DNA of 22,255 nucleotides. Source: a virus. Lineage: Duplodnaviria > Heunggongvirae > Uroviricota > Caudoviricetes. The translations under genes were made by a program, and so were the position numbers. Each line of letters starts with the position of its first letter. The first letter of the stretch is position 1. Positions 9,126 to 17,139 of the stretch are shown here, piece after piece. The notes under the pieces are model-generated. The model was not told the origin of the DNA. It saw only the letters and a list, made by a program, of their open reading frames with translations, and did no database searches. Location: IMG/VR virus record IMGVR_UViG_2648501165_000011. One strand, 5' to 3'.

Positions 9126-10877
9126 ATGATTCAGGACGCTTTTGTGCGCCAGCGTGCGCGGCAACTTTACTGGCAGGGTTATCCGCCCGCAGAAATATCA
9201 CGTCTGATGGGAATAAACCCGAACACGATTTATGCGTGGAAAAAACGCGACCAGTGGGATGAAACGCCACCCGTGCAGCGTGTCACGCAGTCCATCGATG
9301 CGCGCCTCATCCAGCTCACTGAAAAACAGAATAAAACAGGTGGTGACTTCAAGGAAATAGACCTGCTGACCCGGCAGCTTAAAAAACTGCATGATGGCCA
9401 GCCGGATGCGACGGCCACAGGAAAGAAAGGCCGGGCGAAAAAGCTTAAAAATCATTTCACGCCGGAACAGATTGCCGCACTGCGGGAAAAAATCATCAGC
9501 AGGCTGGAGTGGCATCAGCGGGGCTGGTTTGACTCCCTGACCCTTTGCAGGGAAGCAGGGATACGTAACAGGATGATCCTGAAATCCCGACAGATTGGGG
9601 CGACCTGGTATTTTGCACAGGAAGCGCTGCTGATGGCGCTGCGTGACGATGTGGCGCAACCTTACCAGCGTAACCAGATTTTTTTGTCTGCGTCGCGTCG
9701 TCAGGCGTTCCAGTTTAAAAGCATTATTCAGAAGGCCGCGGCTGAAGTTGATGTGGAGTTGAAAGGGGGCGATAAAATCATCCTCTCCAACGGCGCAGAG
9801 CTGCATTTTCTCGGCACTTCTGCTGCGTCGGCACAGTCCTATACGGGCAATTTTTATTTTGATGAATTTTTCTGGGTCAGTCGCTTTGCTGAACTGCGCA
9901 AGGTGGCTGGCGCTATGGCAACCCTCAGCGGACTGCGGCGCACCTACTTCTCCACGCCATCCACCGAAACGCACGAGGCATACGCCTACTGGAACGGCGA
10001 CCGCTGGAACGAGAAAAAGGCCACGCATAAACGCCAGCGTTTTTCTGTGGACTGGAAAACGCTGCATAACGGGCTTATCTGCCCTGACCGGACGTGGCGG
10101 CAAATTGTCACGCTGGAAGATGTGGTTAATCACGGCTGGAAACACACCGATATCGACGAAATTCGTGATGAAAACACCGAAGACGAGTTCCTCAATCTCT
10201 ATATGTGTGAGTTTGTCCGCGAAGGGGAATCGGCATTTAACCTGAATATCCTGATTGGCTGCGGTGTTGACGGATACGACGACTGGAAAGACTGGAAACC
10301 TTTTGCTCCCCGCCCGATGGGGAATCGTCCGGTATGGATTGGGTATGACGCAAACGGCAGCAGTGGCAACGGCGACAGCGGCGCTGTGTCCGTGGTGGTT
10401 CCTCCGTCTGTTCCTGGTGGCCGTTTTCGAACGGTGGAGACGCGACGCGTTCAGGGGCTGGAGTTTGAAGAACAGGCCAGAGTCATTGAAGAGTTCACGT
10501 GTCGCTACAACGTGGAACACATCGGCATTGATGTGACGGGCGGGAACGGGGAGGCTGTTTATCAGATAGTGAAACGGTTTTTCCCTGCCGCTATTCCGTA
10601 CACCTTCACGCTGTCATCAAAACGGTCGCTGGTACTGAAAATGCTGCAAATAATGCGTGCCGGGCGGTGGGAATACGATCGCGCCGAACGCGAGCTGGTC
10701 GCGGCCTTTAACGCCGTGCGTAAGGTGAAAACACCGGGCGGCTTTATCACTTACGAAACGGACCGCGCGAGGGGGATCAGCCACGGCGACCTTGCGTGGG
10801 CAACCATGCTTGCTGTCATTAACGAACCAATTGGCGGCGAAGGAGAAAACGAGCGTTTCACGGTTATGGAGTTCTGA
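9126..10877 (+). CDS. P: Terminase large (ATPase) subunit (P2 gpP-like)
   Basis: 583 aa; HTH-like N-terminus (ISRLMGINPNTIYAWKKR), ATPase core (LKSRQIGATWYFAQEAL, FYFDEFFWV) and C-terminal nuclease region. GGGGG RBS before ATG 9126; stop overlaps the Q start. Confidence 0.9.
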   Translation: MIQDAFVRQRARQLYWQGYPPAEISRLMGINPNTIYAWKKRDQWDETPPVQRVTQSIDARLIQLTEKQNKTGGDFKEIDLLTRQLKKLHDGQPDATATGKKGRAKKLKNHFTPEQIAALREKIISRLEWHQRGWFDSLTLCREAGIRNRMILKSRQIGATWYFAQEALLMALRDDVAQPYQRNQIFLSASRRQAFQFKSIIQKAAAEVDVELKGGDKIILSNGAELHFLGTSAASAQSYTGNFYFDEFFWVSRFAELRKVAGAMATLSGLRRTYFSTPSTETHEAYAYWNGDRWNEKKATHKRQRFSVDWKTLHNGLICPDRTWRQIVTLEDVVNHGWKHTDIDEIRDENTEDEFLNLYMCEFVREGESAFNLNILIGCGVDGYDDWKDWKPFAPRPMGNRPVWIGYDANGSSGNGDSGAVSVVVPPSVPGGRFRTVETRRVQGLEFEEQARVIEEFTCRYNVEHIGIDVTGGNGEAVYQIVKRFFPAAIPYTFTLSSKRSLVLKMLQIMRAGRWEYDRAERELVAAFNAVRKVKTPGGFITYETDRARGISHGDLAWATMLAVINEPIGGEGENERFTVMEF

Positions 10878-11923
10878 TGAGCAGAAAAAATAAAAAAGTG
10901 CGCATGAGTTCACGCATTGATCTCGCTGATGCGCTCAGGAAAGAATCATCGCTCAGTGCATTCACATTTGATGGTCCTTATCGCCTGACCGGGCATGACC
11001 TGCTGGACAATATGTACTGTGCTGATAACGGGCGGTGGTATGAAACCCCGGTGGACTGGTACGGTCTGGCAAGAGCTGCCCGGCAAACGTCCTGGCATCA
11101 GTCTGCGCTTTACTTTAAGCGCAATGTATTGCTCGGTTGCTATATTCCACACCCGCTGCTTTCCCGGCAGGATTTCTCGGCGCTGGCGCTGGACTGGTTT
11201 GTGTTCGGTAACGCATTCCTTGAGCTTCGAAGCAATATGCTCGGCGAACCGCTTAAATTACGGCACGCCCTGGCGAAATACATGCGACGCGGAAGCGATC
11301 TTGAATCATGGTGGTATGTGCAGGATGGTAAGGACGCGTTTCAGTTTCGCCCTGGCAAAGTGTGCCACCTGATGAATCCAGATATTAACCAGGAAATCTA
11401 CGGCATGCCGGAATATCTCGGCGCATTACTCTCGGCCAGCCTGTCTCATTCGGCGGACATGTTCAGAAAACTGTATTACGACAACGGATCCCACGCCGGG
11501 TGCATCATCTACATCGGTGCAGCGCAGGTAAACCGCGAAAGCATGGACTCCCTGAAAGAAACGTTACAGGGGGCACGTGGTGGTGGTGCGTTTAAAAACG
11601 TGCTCATTCATGCGCCCAACGGGGGCAAAGAGGGGGTGCAAATTTTGCCGTTCCAGCAGATCACCGCAAAGGATGAATTCATGAATGTTAAGGCGGCATC
11701 CCGTGATGATGTGCTGGCTGCGCACCGCGTTCCGCCGCAACTGATGGGGGCGATGCCGGGTGAAAAAAGTGCGTTTGGTGATGTGGAGAAGGCCGCGCGG
11801 GTTTACGCAATTAACGAGCTGATGCCAGTCATGGAGGCCATGAAGCACATCAATGACTGGCTTGGCGAAGAGGTTATCCGTTTTAACCCTTACGCACTGT
11901 TAGACACCCAGCCCACATCCTGA
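10877..11923 (+). CDS. Q: Portal (capsid vertex) protein (P2 gpQ-like)
   Basis: 348-aa ORF translationally coupled to P (TGATG overlap); content fits the gpQ portal family; last gene before the cos-proximal spacer. Confidence 0.9.
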   Translation: MSRKNKKVRMSSRIDLADALRKESSLSAFTFDGPYRLTGHDLLDNMYCADNGRWYETPVDWYGLARAARQTSWHQSALYFKRNVLLGCYIPHPLLSRQDFSALALDWFVFGNAFLELRSNMLGEPLKLRHALAKYMRRGSDLESWWYVQDGKDAFQFRPGKVCHLMNPDINQEIYGMPEYLGALLSASLSHSADMFRKLYYDNGSHAGCIIYIGAAQVNRESMDSLKETLQGARGGGAFKNVLIHAPNGGKEGVQILPFQQITAKDEFMNVKAASRDDVLAAHRVPPQLMGAMPGEKSAFGDVEKAARVYAINELMPVMEAMKHINDWLGEEVIRFNPYALLDTQPTS

Positions 11924-11950
11924 CGCGCTTCGCTTGTCTGCTGCTTCGCC

Positions 11951-11973
11951 GGGGCATAAAAAATTTATGCCCC
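11951..11973. terminator. Perfect stem-loop GGGGCATAAA-aaa-TTTATGCCCC just after the Q stop (no T-tract)
   Basis: 10-bp perfect inverted repeat read directly from the sequence; no flanking U-run, so it may be a packaging/cos-associated or RNA-stability structure rather than an intrinsic terminator. Confidence 0.4.
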
Positions 11974-12250
11974 GACTCTCCAGCTCCTGTATCAGTCAGA
12001 TAATTTCACGACGCCTTCCAATTTATCGCCACCATCGACGGTCAGACTCTTACGCAATCCCACCGCGTTGACTGCATGTTCTCGCCGCCTCAGTGCGATT
12101 TTGACGGCCTTACCTTTCACCCCATCAAATCAGAATCCCTCACGTATTTTTCACGCTCAGCGTGAGAAATACGGCCATTCTGTCGTGTCGCTGCGACATT
12201 GTTAAGGGAACGCTATTTACCCCCTGAAACGCGGGCTGTTCCCCCGTCAC
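11974..12250. other. Expected location of cos (packaging) site; exact cohesive-end sequence not identified
   Basis: In P2 the cos site lies just beyond the 3' end of Q. I could not match the remembered P2 cohesive-end sequence, so this is positional inference only. Confidence 0.25.
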
Positions 12251-12277
12251 CTGCGCGCAGAAAAAGCGCGTTTTTTT
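12251..12277 (+). terminator. Intrinsic-terminator-like element: short GC stem (CGCGC-agaaaaa-GCGCG) followed by T7
   Basis: Read directly from the sequence; would stop plus-strand read-through from P-Q. The stem is short (5 bp), so confidence is moderate. Confidence 0.45.
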
Positions 12278-12348
12278 GTGCATGCACGGATCCTTGACGG
12301 ATCCAGCCGCCACGGGGGCCGGAAGGGCAAAAAGTCGTTCAAAAAAAT

Positions 12349-12375
12349 TGTGCAAATTTGTGCACTATTGTGCAG
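12349..12375. repeat. Three direct repeats of TTGTGCA at exact 10-bp phasing
   Basis: attgtgcaaa / tttgtgcact / attgtgcagc at 12349, 12359 and 12369; helical-turn phasing suggests a protein-binding array. Confidence 0.5.
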
Positions 12376-12401
12376 CAGGGCGATGCGCGATTATCGCCCT
12401 G
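12376..12401. repeat. Palindrome CAGGGCGAT-N8-ATCGCCCTG just downstream of the Ea22-like gene stop
   Basis: Perfect 9-bp arms; shares its core (CAGGGCG/CGCCCTG) with the palindrome at 12977..12994 on the other side of the gene. Confidence 0.5.
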
Positions 12402-12414
12402 GTTTGAGAGGAAA

Positions 12415-12939
12415 TCAGGTGTTCTTTTTACCTTCTGTCAGTGGGCATAACCATCCACTATTTACATCACTTAGCTGATGCGTTCTTTCCTCGTGCTTCT
12501 CCTGCCACAATGCTTTTCCGCCAGCCTTTATGATGGCTCTTTCAACATCCCGCTCGTATCGCAAGGGCTGAAATACGTTATTAATGAAATATTCGCTTAT
12601 GTCCGGAAGCAATACTGCAAAATTATTGGTTTGTTGCGCCGTTCGGCTATGCAGCAAAGCGGCATACTTTAATGCGTCCTGTGCTTTCTGGAATTTCAGT
12701 GCATGCTCAGTGGCGATTTTTTCCAGTTCAGCGATCCTGTTGTCTTTGGTTTCCAGCTCTTCCAGCAGCTCGGCGATAATGTCCATTTCCTGATGACGGA
12801 TTTGACGCTTAAACGCCGCCACTGCTTCGCTACAATCCTGCTCAGCATTTGGGTTATCCGTGGTGGCCTCATACCACGCCAGCGTCGATTGATAGTTTTG
12901 TGCCGCCTCACGTAATGCCTGATAGTTGATTTCGCTCAT
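12415..12939 (-). CDS. Ead/Ea22-like family protein (unknown function), accessory cargo gene
   Basis: 174-aa ORF with AAGGAGA RBS 7 nt before ATG 12939. N-terminus MSEINYQALREAAQ... and coiled-coil segment ELLEELETKDNRIAELEKIA resemble the Ead/Ea22-like proteins of E. coli prophages as I remember them; C-terminal half has no recognisable motif. Confidence 0.5.
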   Translation of the reverse strand: MSEINYQALREAAQNYQSTLAWYEATTDNPNAEQDCSEAVAAFKRQIRHQEMDIIAELLEELETKDNRIAELEKIATEHALKFQKAQDALKYAALLHSRTAQQTNNFAVLLPDISEYFINNVFQPLRYERDVERAIIKAGGKALWQEKHEERTHQLSDVNSGWLCPLTEGKKNT

Positions 12940-12976
12940 TATGTCGTTCTCCTTGTTTATGTTCTGAGGTGGAGAG

Positions 12977-12994
12977 CAGGGCGAACCCGCCCTG
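12977..12994. repeat. Perfect hairpin CAGGGCG-aacc-CGCCCTG between parR stop and the Ea22-like start
   Basis: 7-bp perfect stem read from sequence; no T-tract on either side. Confidence 0.5.
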
Positions 12995-13002
12995 ACGTTG
13001 TG

Positions 13003-13314
13003 TTATTCAGGAAATAACGCCCGGATATTTCCGGCCATCTGACTGGTTATCTGTGCGGTTGGTGCTGGCTGTGACACGGGGCGTTCTGTCCTGGTTTGTG
13101 TCAGGGATAACGCTTCATCGTCAGCCCATGCAGCCAGTCGGTAAGCCTCTGCCGGATTAATTTTCATAAGTGCCAGTCCGGCCAGAAAAGCCACACGTTG
13201 ACCACTTTTGCGGGCTTCTGGTGTAAGGCTGTCCAGCCAGGCGCATGCTTCGCCTTCGTTCTTGACGGCGGCGGGCTTCAGATAGAAACTTATCCGTCTG
13301 GTTGGTGTCGTCAT
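13003..13314 (-). CDS. parR: ParR/StbB-like centromere-binding adaptor (ribbon-helix-helix), type II partition
   Basis: ORF 13003..13449; from ATG 13314 the product MTTPTRRISFYLKPAAVKNEGEACAWLDSLTPEARKSGQRVAFLAGLALMK...NIRALFPE parallels plasmid R1 ParR as remembered (RRTIAFKLNPDVNQ...LDSIPQGERSRLNRAALTAGLALYR...ILRSLFPKE). Immediately downstream of parM. Confidence 0.7.
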   Translation of the reverse strand: MTTPTRRISFYLKPAAVKNEGEACAWLDSLTPEARKSGQRVAFLAGLALMKINPAEAYRLAAWADDEALSLTQTRTERPVSQPAPTAQITSQMAGNIRALFPE

Positions 13315-13318
13315 TGGT

Positions 13319-14278
13319 TTACTCCTTGTCCATTGCGTACAGCCCATTAACCAGAGCAAACTGTGGCACCCCGTCCGCGATGAAAGTCGCATTAACTCCG
13401 CAGGCTTCGCGGATAGCGGGTGCCACAATCTCCGCCCCGCCACCGACAACCATCACCCGCCCGTAACCCGAAAAACCCGCCAGCGCGCGGATCACGCGTT
13501 GTTTCAGTGTTTCTTCCTTTTCACGAATAACCGCCATCAGGCTGTCGTAATGCGCGTCATTGTGGATGTGCTGGCGCAGCCAGGCTTCATTATGGCGATG
13601 TTCGATAATGGTATTGGCGATGTGGTGACTGGTACGCATACCGTTAGTGGCCATCACCGACAGTACGGCATCGGCCATCAGGGAAACGCCTACGTGTGGA
13701 TCGCAAAACACCTGGCTGATACCTGCCAGTTGTCCCTGAACCTTTGCCACATCCAGCGTGGTTCCGCCTAAATCCACAATCAGCAGGGATTCAAACGGAC
13801 TCATGTCAGCCAGTGCTTTAAAACCAGCCGGAATGGATTCAGGCATAACCCGTACGTTACGGATAGTGAATGCTTTTCCGTTCTGGTACGCCACCGGGCG
13901 CATGACGTTTGCTTTTTTGCGGTTGATGTTGGCCATGTCCGGCTGTGCGTTTGTGTCGAAATATTCGCTCAGTGGCAGGGTGACAACCACATCCACTTCC
14001 TGTGGTGTGATGCCTGATTTGACCAGCGCGTGATGAATGGCAATGACATTCACATCGCTGTACTGGTATTGCGTGTCGGTCGTCTGGACAAAGCGATCGC
14101 TGACCGGATCAAAACCATAGCGCACGCCATCAAGCATGTAGTTCGCGGGCTGCGTGCCACCGAACGGCGCAGACCATTCCGACTTGAAGCTGTTCGGGCT
14201 GATGGCGTTGCGGCGTTCGCCGTTCTCAGTCCATGCCAGCTTGATGTTGGTGGAGCCGTCATCGATACAAATTTTCAT
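13319..14278 (-). CDS. parM: ParM/StbA-like actin-type segregation ATPase
   Basis: 319 aa; MKICIDDGSTNIKLAW, ISPNSFK, YQYSDVNVIAIHHAL, VMPESIPAG, LIVDLGGTTLD, SGYGRVMVVGGGAE, LVNGLY track plasmid R1 ParM almost motif for motif (actin-fold phosphate-1, connect and adenosine motifs). AAGGAAAA RBS before ATG 14278. Confidence 0.85.
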   Translation of the reverse strand: MKICIDDGSTNIKLAWTENGERRNAISPNSFKSEWSAPFGGTQPANYMLDGVRYGFDPVSDRFVQTTDTQYQYSDVNVIAIHHALVKSGITPQEVDVVVTLPLSEYFDTNAQPDMANINRKKANVMRPVAYQNGKAFTIRNVRVMPESIPAGFKALADMSPFESLLIVDLGGTTLDVAKVQGQLAGISQVFCDPHVGVSLMADAVLSVMATNGMRTSHHIANTIIEHRHNEAWLRQHIHNDAHYDSLMAVIREKEETLKQRVIRALAGFSGYGRVMVVGGGAEIVAPAIREACGVNATFIADGVPQFALVNGLYAMDKE

Positions 14279-14304
14279 GTCGCTTTTCCTTATGTTGATT
14301 AATT

Positions 14305-14420
14305 AATCGTTTACGGGATTCTGAAATCCCGTTTTTGCCTGTTTTATGCGCGCTTCATATATCGCGGCGCGTTTTTTGCTCATTTACGGGATTTGTGAAT
14401 CCCGTTTCTGTCTGTTTTTT
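14305..14420. promoter_or_regulatory. parC-like centromere/operator: two 20-bp palindromes ACGGGATT-N4-AATCCCGT 73 bp apart (centre to centre), each followed by a conserved TTT(T/C)TG(C/T)CTGTTTT tail, flanking an AT-rich promoter-like core
   Basis: Sites at 14313..14332 and 14386..14405 read directly; position immediately upstream of parM matches the parC-parM-parR organisation of type II partition loci. Confidence 0.55.
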
Positions 14421-14794
14421 GTTTCCACTGGTCAGGCCACCCCGCAGCAGGTCTGCTTTGCGGCGGGCGCGTTCAGTGGTTTCACTGATTCTCTGTGCGT
14501 GCTCTGCGTCGCGGATGGCGCGCAGCATGTCAGAAAGCACGGTAACGGGTGTTTTCATGGTGTTCTGGTCTTGCTGAAGTGTGGATGCCAGGCGTGCGGC
14601 GGCTTCGGGGTCTGATGCCCCCAGCTGTTCCAGATAGCTGGCGACCGGGTTATGGCGGATCTCCGTGCTGCTTACGCCGTGGTTACGGCTCAGGCGCTGC
14701 CAGAGCTGCGTGATTCGGCTGTCCGGGCGGGTATCCGGTTTGCGTACAATTTCAAATCCCTGCGGTGCAATGATGCTGCCGTCAACGTACAGGC
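14355..14794 (-). CDS. ORF of unknown function whose 5' end lies in the assembly gap (could be a separate gene or the frame-shifted C-terminus of gpA)
   Basis: Open frame reads from the N-run to a stop at 14355. Translated segment (...EIVRKPDTRPDSRITQLWQRLSRNHGVSSTEIRHNPVASYLEQLGASDPEAAARLA...) is protein-like, but its C-terminal 20 codons run through the parC palindrome, so its true extent is uncertain. Confidence 0.3.
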
Positions 14795-14828
14795 NNNNNN
14801 NNNNNNNNNNNNNNNNNNNNNNNNNNNN
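14795..14828. other. Run of 34 N (assembly or scaffold gap of unknown true length)
   Basis: Directly visible in the sequence. Confidence 0.99.
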
Positions 14829-17139
14829 ATTCTTTAGCGAGTAATTCGTGGTTATCAGGCAAAGGCCGCTGCTGTTTGCGGCTCTGTGTCCAGCTCTGCA
14901 TTTCATCACTGCTGTTTTTTGCCTGTTTGTCACGAAGCGAACGCATCAGCGCCCGGCGTTCGTGCCGTTTCAGTGAGCGCATCCATTCGTTCACTTCAAC
15001 GCCGTCAGGGAGCTGCGGCCACGGTGCTGGCCGTTCTTCCGGCTGTTCTGTCCCGTTGTTGTCCGTTTCCTGTACACGGGGACAGTTATTGCCACGAGTC
15101 CAAGGGGCGGCAGGGCCGCCCTGAAGGTCAAAACCATTTTCGCGGGCGCTGTCTTCCGTTTCCGGTTTACGTCTTACCAGTTTCCAGTTATCCGGATGCG
15201 TGCACACACGGGAGGATTCCCCGATGAGTGGTGACCAGATCCCGTAAATCTGTACGCTCTGTTCGCCGTAATCATTCAGCTCATCTGCGAGGTCGTAGGC
15301 GGTGCGAATCAGGTAGTCTTTGCGTGGAACAAGTACGCCGCCCTGTTTTTCAATGTAGGTGGCAAAACACCCGGCATCGGCGGCAGCGAGTACCGCATCC
15401 ATTGCGTCATCTTTCAGTCGTTGCGGGCCTTCCGGGTTGCGTGCCATCTGGCTGGCAAGGCGGCGCAGTTCACGCCACACCTGACGGGAGGGGATGCCAA
15501 AGAACTGGAACTGGCGGACCCGATGAAGGCGCGCCCAGCCGATGGCGCGCTCCACACTCTCGACCATTGATTTTCCGGTTTCGTGGTCAACGCGTGGCTT
15601 GCCCGTTTTCGGGTCGATGCCATCCACGGCGCGGCTGTCCAGGTTCTTTCCGATGTAGGTCGCGATATAGCTGGTTGGTGTGCCTTTTGAGCCGTCGACA
15701 TACTCCGCCTTAAAGCGCGGAGTAATATCATTGCCCAGCTCGTGGCGGTCTTCCTGAATGGCAATATCGCGGGTGATGGCCACGATGCTGTCGATTTCTT
15801 CCGGATGAGCAAAGACCATCATATGCCAGTGCACGGTGCCGTCATGGTGAGGCTCCACCGTGCGGATGCCATACCAGCGAAGACCGTCGCGGTTCAGTTT
15901 TTTGCGGACCGCCGCAAAAAACGTGTTAACCAGGTAATCACTGGAGTCGCGCATGGTGGACCCGTTCCATTTGGGGTTCGGATGACCGTTCTCTGTTGTG
16001 GCGTGGTATTTTGACGGGCAGGTGACAGTCAGAAACACCGCTTTGTCGCCACGGGCTTCGGCCAGAAGTTCCAGCCCCTTCATGGTGGCCATCATTTCTG
16101 CCTTACGGTGAACCGGGTTACTTACTCCCGCGTAATACACCGTCTCGAGATCAAACGTGAACCCGTCTTCATTTTCCAGCATGAAACTTTTCAGGAAATC
16201 GCGTGTTTTCTCGCGCTGTGCGCGAAACTCGCTTAACGCGTCCTGGCTCAGATAGGGCGATGTTTTTCTGGAAACCAGACAGGCGGCGCGGAGTTGTTCT
16301 TCTCTCCACTCGCAACGTAACAGCCACAGTTTGCGTTTCCACCATTCTGCACAGGTCAGGCGAAGGATTGCGCCCGGCAGCAGCTCCGTGTCCGGTTCGT
16401 TCCTCCGGTCTTTGTCTGTTGTCAGTGCGTCATAATGTGGAGGCATGGCGTGCAGGTGTAACGCCATGCGGGCCAGCATCTGATACGCCTTCAGCGTTAC
16501 ATCCATGGTCAGTTCGCCATCGGTCGCGCCAAAGCCATCGCAGAGTTTTTCGAAGGTGCTGCTGAACATCGCCGCCGTCATGGTGGCCAGTGTCTGTATC
16601 TGGTGTTTGTTGAGCTGCGGCAGGTAAAGCAAATCGTCCAAGCGTTCGCGTCCGGCAAGGGAGCGATAACCCTGTGTCAGCCAGCGGTGATCGGTGCGCT
16701 CCAGACGTTCGAATATTTTGCGCAGGTTTCCGCGCGCGTAGCGTTCAGCCTGCCAGCTCTTTTTGCCTTTCTGACGATCGGCTTCCTGTTTTTTGCGCAG
16801 GAAGGAGAGGTGGCGAATAAGCGGATCGCGCAGATAGGACGGCAGCAGGCGCAGCGAGGCCATGGCTTCATCCACCGCGCCGCGTGCCTGTTTTCTGGCA
16901 TCTCCTGCCAGTGTGATGGTTTTGTCCTGTTTTTCCTGTGCGTCCAGGCTTTTATTAATCAGGTTGCCCAGCGGCGTTGCGGAGAACGCCGCATCAGCCA
17001 TTTCCTGGCGGTGCTCGTTCTCTACCCGGTAGGCATCCAGCCAGGAGGAAAGCGCGGATTCAGGAGCGGGGATCCCCGTTCCTTCACGCCCCACTGCGTG
17101 GCGCGGTTGTTGCCAGTCCCTGATGTACTCTGCCGTCAT
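14829..17139 (-). CDS. A: Replication initiation endonuclease (P2 gpA-like, HUH rolling-circle nickase); 3' end interrupted by the N-gap
   Basis: About 770 aa before the gap; HUH-type motif EPHHDGTVHWHMMVF and Tyr-rich active-site region GTPTSYIATYIGKN, typical of P2 gpA-family proteins; ATG 17139. Confidence 0.85.

Follow-up and report, generated by a model that had tools for sequence, protein, structure and literature searches.

Palindromes at the edges of the parR–cos cargo slot of P88-like prophages: conserved flank elements that are probably RNA stem-loops

The window analysed in this work is the whole 22,255-nucleotide (nt) stretch of the IMG/VR virus record IMGVR_UViG_2648501165_000011 (Caudoviricetes), which is a P88-like prophage of E. 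coli (Xuanwuvirus, P2 family). Its DNA was 94–97% identical to that of P88-like Xuanwuvirus phages, and the P2-like setting was borne out by the terminase, portal and gpA genes. The gene order is terminase–portal–cos region–cargo–parR–parM–gpA. The cargo is an Ead/Ea22-like gene located within the gpA–gpQ hotspot, where it occupies a sub-slot bounded by parR and by three TTGTGCA repeats, and it is bracketed by two palindromes, designated H_R (parR side) and H_L (cos side), which are the subject of this study. The sub-slot and its flanks contain the following features:

12977..12994, minus strand: H_R, the parR-side palindrome, CAGGGCG-aacc-CGCCCTG, with a stem of 7 base pairs (bp) and a 4-nt loop
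12376..12401, minus strand: H_L, the cos-side palindrome, CAGGGCGAT-gcgcgatt-ATCGCCCTG, with a 9-bp stem and an 8-nt loop
12415..12939, minus strand: cargo gene of the Ead/Ea22 family, 174 amino acids (aa), Pfam PF13935 Ead_Ea22 at residues 2–116
12940..12976, minus strand: 37-nt leader between H_R and the Ea22-like ATG, containing a Shine–Dalgarno sequence
12402..12417, minus strand: Ea22-like stop codon TGA (12415–12417) with a 13-nt spacer ending in CAAAC, conserved with H_L even under a different upstream gene
12348..12374, plus strand: three TTGTGCA repeats with 10-nt spacing, with which the conserved backbone starts on the cos side
12341..12365, minus strand: weak terminator-like backbone element, GTGCA-caaatt-TGCAC followed by AATTTTTTT (T7 run)
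13003..13314, minus strand: parR, StbB-type plasmid stability/partition adaptor of 103 aa (PF10784, 4.8e-25), the conserved right flank of the slot
13319..14278, minus strand: parM, actin-like partition ATPase (PF06406, 6.9e-82; PF21523, 4.7e-68)

H_R is the last element conserved on the parR side of the slot; 8 nt separate it from the parR stop codon and 37 nt from the ATG of the Ea22-like gene, while H_L begins 13 nt past the stop codon of this gene and directly adjoins the conserved TTGTGCA repeats. The core common to both palindromes comprises 7 + 7 nt, and a 10-nt direct repeat, AGCAGGGCGA, spans the left arm of each. The pattern CAGGGCG-N(2–12)-CGCCCTG had exactly two matches in the window, namely, H_R and H_L, and was matched in none of 100 shuffles. 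The predicted RNA stability was −12.5 kcal/mol for H_R (z = −3.9) and −14.9 kcal/mol for H_L (z = −4.5). Perfect GC-rich hairpins numbered 10 in the window versus 4.1 ± 1.8 in the shuffles, and only four of them, including H_R and H_L, were intergenic. Thus, the first-pass annotation, which had been made from the letters of the sequence, was right in placing two perfect palindromes with a shared CAGGGCG core around the 174-aa gene, as well as in assigning this gene to the Ead/Ea22 family in a P2-like setting (PF13935 score of 55.5 bits versus a cutoff of 27, E = 1.2e-14). It should be noted that a third, imperfect copy of the core is located at 13019–13027 in the parR codons Ile-Arg-Ala (minus strand ATCCGGGCG; P88 has ATCAGGGCG); an alternative long-range helix could form between it and the 3′ arm of H_R.

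The locus was compared, with BLAST used for anchoring, across eight annotated phages (L001–L008), 80 ParR-anchored IMG/VR loci and 29 Ea22-anchored ones; the counts of hairpin assortment refer to the 68 loci with complete cargo among the ParR-anchored set. ParR relatives in IMG/VR numbered 196, of which the best 80 were 91–100% identical. The conserved backbone was limited by the region of the parR stop codon on one side and, to the nucleotide, by the TTGTGCA repeats on the other: all eight phage loci agreed up to ...TTGTGCA, with the cargo sequences diverging immediately beyond. Between these limits, the cargo ranged from 627 to 2,326 nt, and 58 unique sequences were present in the 68 complete loci. 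In all the P88-like loci compared, the slot is bounded by the TTGTGCA repeats towards cos, and terminase may recognise these repeats during packaging.

H_R was found in 65 of the 80 ParR-anchored IMG/VR contigs beside at least six unrelated cargos, its neighbours being P88 zinc-finger-gene operons, an opposite-strand open reading frame (ORF) of 198 aa, a cargo with a 381-aa ORF, a two-gene non-Ea22 pair and Ea22-like genes. Both hairpins were present together in 9 of the 68 loci, H_R without H_L in 45, H_L without H_R in 6 and neither in 8. H_L was found after Ea22-like genes of three different 3′ ends and, in loci L060 and L062, after an unrelated two-gene non-Ea22 cargo (128 aa + 125 aa), where homology resumed at the stop codon (TGATCCCCACCAAAC-H_L). 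The stop codon with its spacer was TGATTTCCTCTCAAAC in the window, TGATCCCCCTCAAAC in the L007 type, TGATCCCCACCAAAC in the non-Ea22 cargo of L060 and TAGATCCACGACAAAC in the L028 type. The cargo of L060 and L062 is unannotated and occupies 913 nt between the parR stop codon and H_L, its edges being a compensatory H_R variant and H_L; judging by its sequence, the pair may be toxin–antitoxin-like, with a possible helix-turn-helix regulator as its second protein.

These data bear on the proposal that the palindromes form a cassette boundary, the Ea22-like gene having been acquired with both of them as one unit. The palindromes do mark both edges of the variable segment; however, all four combinations of the hairpins exist and both H_R and H_L occur beside non-Ea22 cargos, and the reading of gene and palindromes as one unit is refuted because the hairpins occur without the Ea22-like gene. 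Phage morons are genes that have entered among conserved neighbours together with a promoter and a terminator of their own. The Ea22-like gene resembles such morons in being accessory, in being present or absent between conserved neighbours and in having a hairpin downstream, and both hairpins accompany it in the window and in about 226 E. coli genomes. The window matched 1,474 E. coli records, of which 226 covered at least 80% of positions 11900–14400 and hence carry the same cargo; E. coli U90, E92/E94 and O103:H2 12009, which have this cassette, were 96–98% identical over these positions. Unlike the ends of a moron, the flanking hairpins persist here when the gene changes, and they occur without each other. 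In addition, no promoter of its own was predicted for the Ea22-like gene, and the gene family is found elsewhere without these hairpins: Ea22-like genes of a P2-like hotspot without ParMR and of another genomic island terminate in hairpins quite unlike these. A moron cassette acquired as a whole is thus very improbable. An element of the IS200/IS605 type or similar to palindrome-associated transposable elements (PATE), with subterminal hairpins, was also rejected, as the hairpins keep their positions with respect to parR and cos whatever the cargo.

Another option named at the outset was that of repetitive extragenic palindromic (REP)-like or otherwise dispersed or mobile host palindromes, and H_R and H_L, like these, are extragenic GC-rich palindromes at gene 3′ ends. 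However, the many copies characteristic of REP elements and bacterial interspersed mosaic elements (BIME) were not found: the core pattern occurred twice in the 22-kb window, and, of 5,426 complete E. coli genomes, 175 contained H_L, none of them more than twice (178 places in all). Within IMG/VR, H_L was confined to the P88-like slot, 23 of the 24 exact matches of its pattern lying at this same junction. The 18-nt H_R pattern was contained in over 120 viral contigs. Among the 118 matching loci that were newly retrieved (two matches in loci already in the comparison set being left out), 12 had GAATAA directly before the pattern, a stop context like that of parR, and at least one of them is a chance match. 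The H_R-pattern matches outside P88-like loci lay in unrelated high-GC contigs (median GC of 65.5%) and are taken to be due to chance. An Rfam search of positions 11800–14900 revealed nothing at threshold, the one chance match being to gyrA RNA (22 bits versus a cutoff of 45). Consequently, a REP-like dispersed element is excluded for H_L and unsupported for H_R, and the probability left to this explanation is negligible.

Comparison of H_R among the loci revealed at least six loop forms (GGTT, AGTT, CATC, TATC, TATT and AACT), while the stem stayed the same, a pattern pointing to selection on the hairpin. One variant was fully compensatory, with a G-C to A-T replacement (CAGGGCA-tatt-TGCCCTG), another was extended to 9 bp (CCAGGGCGG-aaa-CCGCCCTGG), and all the H_R variants folded stably (−12.5 to −19.6 kcal/mol). 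Two variants (CGTCCTG and TAGGGCGAT) stayed paired only via G·U on the mRNA strand. Loci without H_R held another hairpin at the same position, CGGGGTG-cactgt-CGCCCCG, in which a U·G pair makes the mRNA strand stronger (−11.8 versus −9.9 kcal/mol). The spacing between the half-sites was N4 in most H_R sequences, N5 in the L018 type and N12 in H_L, and, because it varies in this way, a folded nucleic acid is favoured over a dimeric operator.

Paired binding sites for one regulator had likewise been suggested in the first-pass annotation; they would be double-stranded sites (operators or centromere-like) for a dimeric protein such as ParR. This possibility is consistent with the perfect dyad symmetry, with the identical 7-bp half-site at both places and with the preservation of symmetry in the compensatory variant, but three spacings are incompatible with one rigid dimer and either site can be missing. 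Moreover, another palindrome pair, ACGGGATT-N4-AATCCCGT, lies upstream of parM, where parC would be expected. Such paired operators are accordingly considered quite unlikely. The ACGGGATT-N4-AATCCCGT palindromes, which also have the same arms, are located at 14313–14332 and 14386–14405, 73 nt apart, one on each side of the gpA stop codon (14355) and a short way ahead of the parM ATG (14278). Both were flagged by the terminator scan as plus-strand terminator-like, and together they are a candidate parC/ParR operator.

As to transcription of the cargo, parM is presumed to be the start of a parM–parR–cargo transcription unit. No sigma-70-like promoter was predicted on the minus strand between parM and the Ea22-like gene, and only 63 nt separate parR from the cargo ATG, which is hardly space for a promoter. 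In arrays of 2–4 cargo genes, the ORFs overlapped in an operon-like manner and no internal hairpin of the CAGGGCG type was present, so that an integron-type (attC) organisation was not found. Since a promoter is neither predicted nor easily accommodated, and since cargo ORFs overlap without internal hairpins, the cargo is probably read from the parM–parR transcript. The leader preceding the Ea22-like gene contains a stretch, ACATAAACAAGGAG, also present in the unrelated P88 cargo leader, and ACATAAACAAGG is common to the Ea22-type and zinc-finger-type cargos. Sequestration of the Shine–Dalgarno GGAGA by UCUCC after H_R (5 bp, in the minimum-energy fold) was considered and dropped, as leaders of the L037 type change both sides without compensation.

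Taken together, the palindromes are regarded, with moderate confidence, as conserved flank elements of the P88-like cargo slot, most likely acting as RNA stem-loops on the minus-strand parM–parR–cargo transcript. Their locations, their independence from the Ea22-like gene and their conservation pattern were shown directly; among the options offered in the first-pass annotation, an RNA-level role is the best reading that we infer from them. According to this reading, H_R would be an intercistronic stem-loop past the parR stop codon, serving as a barrier to 3′ exonucleases or as a partial attenuator, and would uncouple the level of parMR mRNA from that of the downstream cargo; for a cargo on the opposite strand, it would act as the terminator. 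H_L would be the 3′-terminal stem-loop of the cargo transcript, in place of the canonical terminators of other cargos; with termination occurring through Rho or further downstream, it would fix the 3′ end and shield it.

Both hairpins are GC-rich stem-loops immediately downstream of a gene, as in intrinsic terminators. The U-tract that would complete such a terminator was, however, absent 3′ of the stem on the minus (gene) strand, where the tails were CUCUCCACCU and CUGCACAAUA, and, for lack of this tract, H_L would protect rather than terminate alone. Other cargos at the H_L position ended in canonical minus-strand terminators with T-tracts (AAACGCCCT-cttcc-AGGGCGTTT + ATTTCA and others). These terminators (P88, PhiR44_2 and 520873 types) share with H_L the position before the TTGTGCA backbone, the strand and the GC-rich stem, and differ from it in having a U-tract on the mRNA strand. 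On the same strand, the stem of the weak terminator-like backbone element starts 10 nt downstream of H_L.

Intercistronic stem-loops and REP stabilisers set differential expression in operons, e.g., in malE–malF. H_R likewise lies between two cistrons of one presumed transcript and is placed so as to shield the upstream parMR from 3′–5′ decay. In contrast to the multi-copy REP stabilisers, it is single in each prophage, and presumably it does not fit the REP consensus. A second known class is that of the E. coli Rho-dependent transcripts ending just past stable stem-loops without U-rich sequence, these stem-loops shielding the RNA from PNPase and RNase II (Dar & Sorek 2018, PMC6061677). H_R and H_L have the characters of this class, being stable, GC-rich, located right after a gene end and free of a U-tract. 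As regards a C-rich, G-poor rut-like region downstream, C modestly exceeded G after H_L (24 versus 17 in 80 nt). After H_R, the corresponding numbers were 11 and 5, with just 37 nt left before the next ATG. H_R differs from this class in being intercistronic, with the next start codon 37 nt off and little space for Rho loading.

A number of observations weigh against the stem-loops acting on the minus-strand transcript. Co-transcription with parMR, the 3′ ends and every RNA-level activity of H_R and H_L are what we infer. Formal counting of pairs in H_R yielded a single compensatory pair, and a score as high as the observed one was obtained in 22 of 500 shuffles; the structural claim is therefore based mainly on the invariance of the stem versus the variability of the loop, and on the spacing. 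A scan of genome contigs with ParR gave three loci only, hence almost no added divergent sequence for covariation. The strand evidence from G·U versus C·A pairs was mixed, two variants speaking for the mRNA strand, one, CAAGGCGAT, for the other strand (G·U pairing on the plus strand only) and two being neutral; two variants lost a pair outright. Furthermore, the plus-strand tails of H_R and H_L are somewhat more terminator-like than the minus-strand ones: with the plus-strand tail ACGTTGTGTT, H_R was accepted by a lenient terminator scan, and GTTTG came after H_L on this strand in all four contexts. The statement that neither palindrome is followed by a T-tract holds for the gene strand.

These tails would suit hairpins that serve chiefly the plus strand, or both strands, as intrinsic terminators or insulators against transcription from the cos/late-operon side or from opposite-strand cargos, antisense to the cargo and parMR. 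The opposite-strand cargo loci L030, L031, L049 and L035 point in the same direction, as H_R was kept there with a 10–11-bp stem, 17 nt past the stop codon of that ORF. However, the T-rich tail of H_R is merely the parR stop codon with the last codons (TTATTC), and H_L is followed by three U only. In addition, the window has no plus-strand gene here needing termination. A strong plus-strand terminator-like site (GCGCGCAGAAAAAGCGCGT + T7) is already present upstream, at 12253–12271, adjoining the presumed cos sequence, and no plus-strand promoter was predicted from there to H_L. Plus-strand or bidirectional termination is therefore viewed as a possible, albeit rather unlikely, main function.

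The shared core of H_R and H_L is left unaccounted for by an RNA function. AGGGCG/CGCCCT is present in the 3′ terminator of the P88 type as well, a hint of either a common origin or a bias of GC-rich stems. The identity of the cores probably reflects common descent or coincidence among GC-rich stems, with no shared recognition site, and may also have a DNA-level cause.

The site corresponds to the gpA–gpQ hotspot, lying between gpA and the portal gene, beside cos, and having content that varies among close relatives. Its outer genes are as follows:

9126–10877, plus strand: large terminase
10877–11923, plus strand: portal, with the cos region coming next
17139..14355, minus strand: gpA, interrupted by a masked 34-nt N run

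The masked run, at 14795–14828, splits gpA into two apparent ORFs (17139..14782 and 14933..14355), the true end of the gene being 14355. Directly 3′ of the portal stop codon, at 11950–11974, there is an 11-bp perfect hairpin, CGGGGCATAAA-aaa-TTTATGCCCCG, overlapped by the sub-threshold Rfam gyrA match. The gpA–portal interval beside cos is a published diversity/defence hotspot of P2-like phages, with a putative partition system in about a quarter of them (Rousset et al. 2022, PMC9122126). The locus studied here is the same and its cargo is likewise highly variable. The main text of PMC9122126 and that of the 2026 follow-up preprint mention neither hairpins, palindromes or terminators nor the sub-slot from parR to the cos repeats.

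The very rapid swapping for which this hotspot is known, as well as the silence of the two main texts on hairpins, leads to a further explanation, according to which H_R and H_L are DNA-level junctions: as hairpins or cruciforms in rolling-circle P2 replication, they would drive template switching or structure-specific cleavage, the cargo being swapped, deleted or inverted between them. Conservation breaks off exactly at the outer edge of H_R, the H_R loop sequence largely correlates with cargo class, and H_R and H_L are cross-complementary, all of which would be in line with such junctions; if they exist, they would help explain the unusually fast, clean cargo swapping at P2-like hotspots. 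However, most loci have one hairpin or none and are still variable, breakpoints are also found within the Ea22-like gene and at stop codons, and multi-gene arrays lack internal copies. Homologous recombination in parR and the cos flank is enough to explain the swapping. We therefore consider DNA-level junctions improbable and retain the RNA stem-loops as the preferred explanation.

The Ea22-like protein had 326 homologues, all the named ones being called ead/Ea22-like. Its sequence is a mosaic with a conserved N-terminus, the core RIAELEKIATDYALKFQKAQDALKYA, the C-terminal motif EYFINxVFQPLRYERDVERAIIKAGGK and variable inserts between them. The best phage matches outside Xuanwuvirus were P22-like EaA and lambdoid Ea22 proteins (about 29–31% identity), and short segments were 58–76% identical to P22-like phage proteins. 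At the sequence level, this mosaic similarity is compatible with an old exchange between phage families. The cross-family gene traffic suggested in the first-pass annotation thus gains weak support; however, Ea22-family genes are common in P2-like hotspots anyway, and for this reason the presence of one here is not unusual. A gene of this family (L266, 3001–3492) lies in the gpA–portal hotspot of a P2-like prophage without parMR, in the order gpA, 143-aa gene, Ea22-like gene, followed by a 208-aa gene, Ogr and portal on the other strand; since this prophage without parMR carries one too, Ea22-family genes are recurrent hotspot cargo.

The lambda Ea22 and P22 Ead/EaA proteins have the N-terminal/coiled-coil region of Pfam Ead_Ea22 in common with the window protein. 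The promotion of lysogeny by lambda Ea22 (PMC7093339, PMC10834534) is no more than a lead for the protein studied here. In contrast to the lambda gene of the exo–xis region, the window gene lies in a P2-like hotspot. Its C-terminal motif is unlike the lambda-type Ea22 C-terminal domain, and a search of PDB sequences gave no match at E ≤ 1, hence none to the solved lambda domain. The AlphaFold2 model (26 sequences), with long helices over residues 6–103 and a small alpha/beta tail, had a predicted local distance difference test (pLDDT) score of 56, too low for fold matches to have meaning. In PADLOC, none of the three proteins (Ea22-like, ParR and ParM) had a credible match to a defence family, and in PHROGs the Ea22-like protein matched only families of unknown function. 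In alleles P0002 and P0027, the stop codon is lost and reading runs through H_L and the TTGTGCA repeats, giving the tail ...CSPSNQGDNRASPFCTIVHKFAQFF.

Several records retrieved during the comparison concern the partition genes. The circular E. coli 'plasmid' record NZ_CP148288.1 (34,461 bp; L123) is phage-sized and looks like a complete P88-like phage genome, a 7.3 kb stretch of it carrying gpA, parM, parR and terminase; it fits an episomal (phage–plasmid) state enabled by parMR. ParR sequences 97% and 88% identical to that of the window were found in a contig of Vagococcus sp. WN89Y (L118), also with an Ea22-like gene, and in a 229-nt contig of Fredinandcohnia humi (L120), respectively; in these Gram-positive assemblies, they are probably contaminating E. 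coli DNA.

Thus, the anatomy of the sub-slot is a parR stop codon, a conserved stem-loop, interchangeable cargo, a terminator or second stem-loop, and the TTGTGCA repeats by cos, which replaces the picture of a self-contained moron with matching ends. To a specialist, the result is unsurprising and belongs to ordinary biology. If the RNA reading is true, the hairpins would be generic punctuation, owing to which any incoming gene could be expressed from the partition operon without disturbing parMR; this would help to predict how hotspot cargo, defence genes among it, is expressed in lysogens and to define cargo boundaries automatically.

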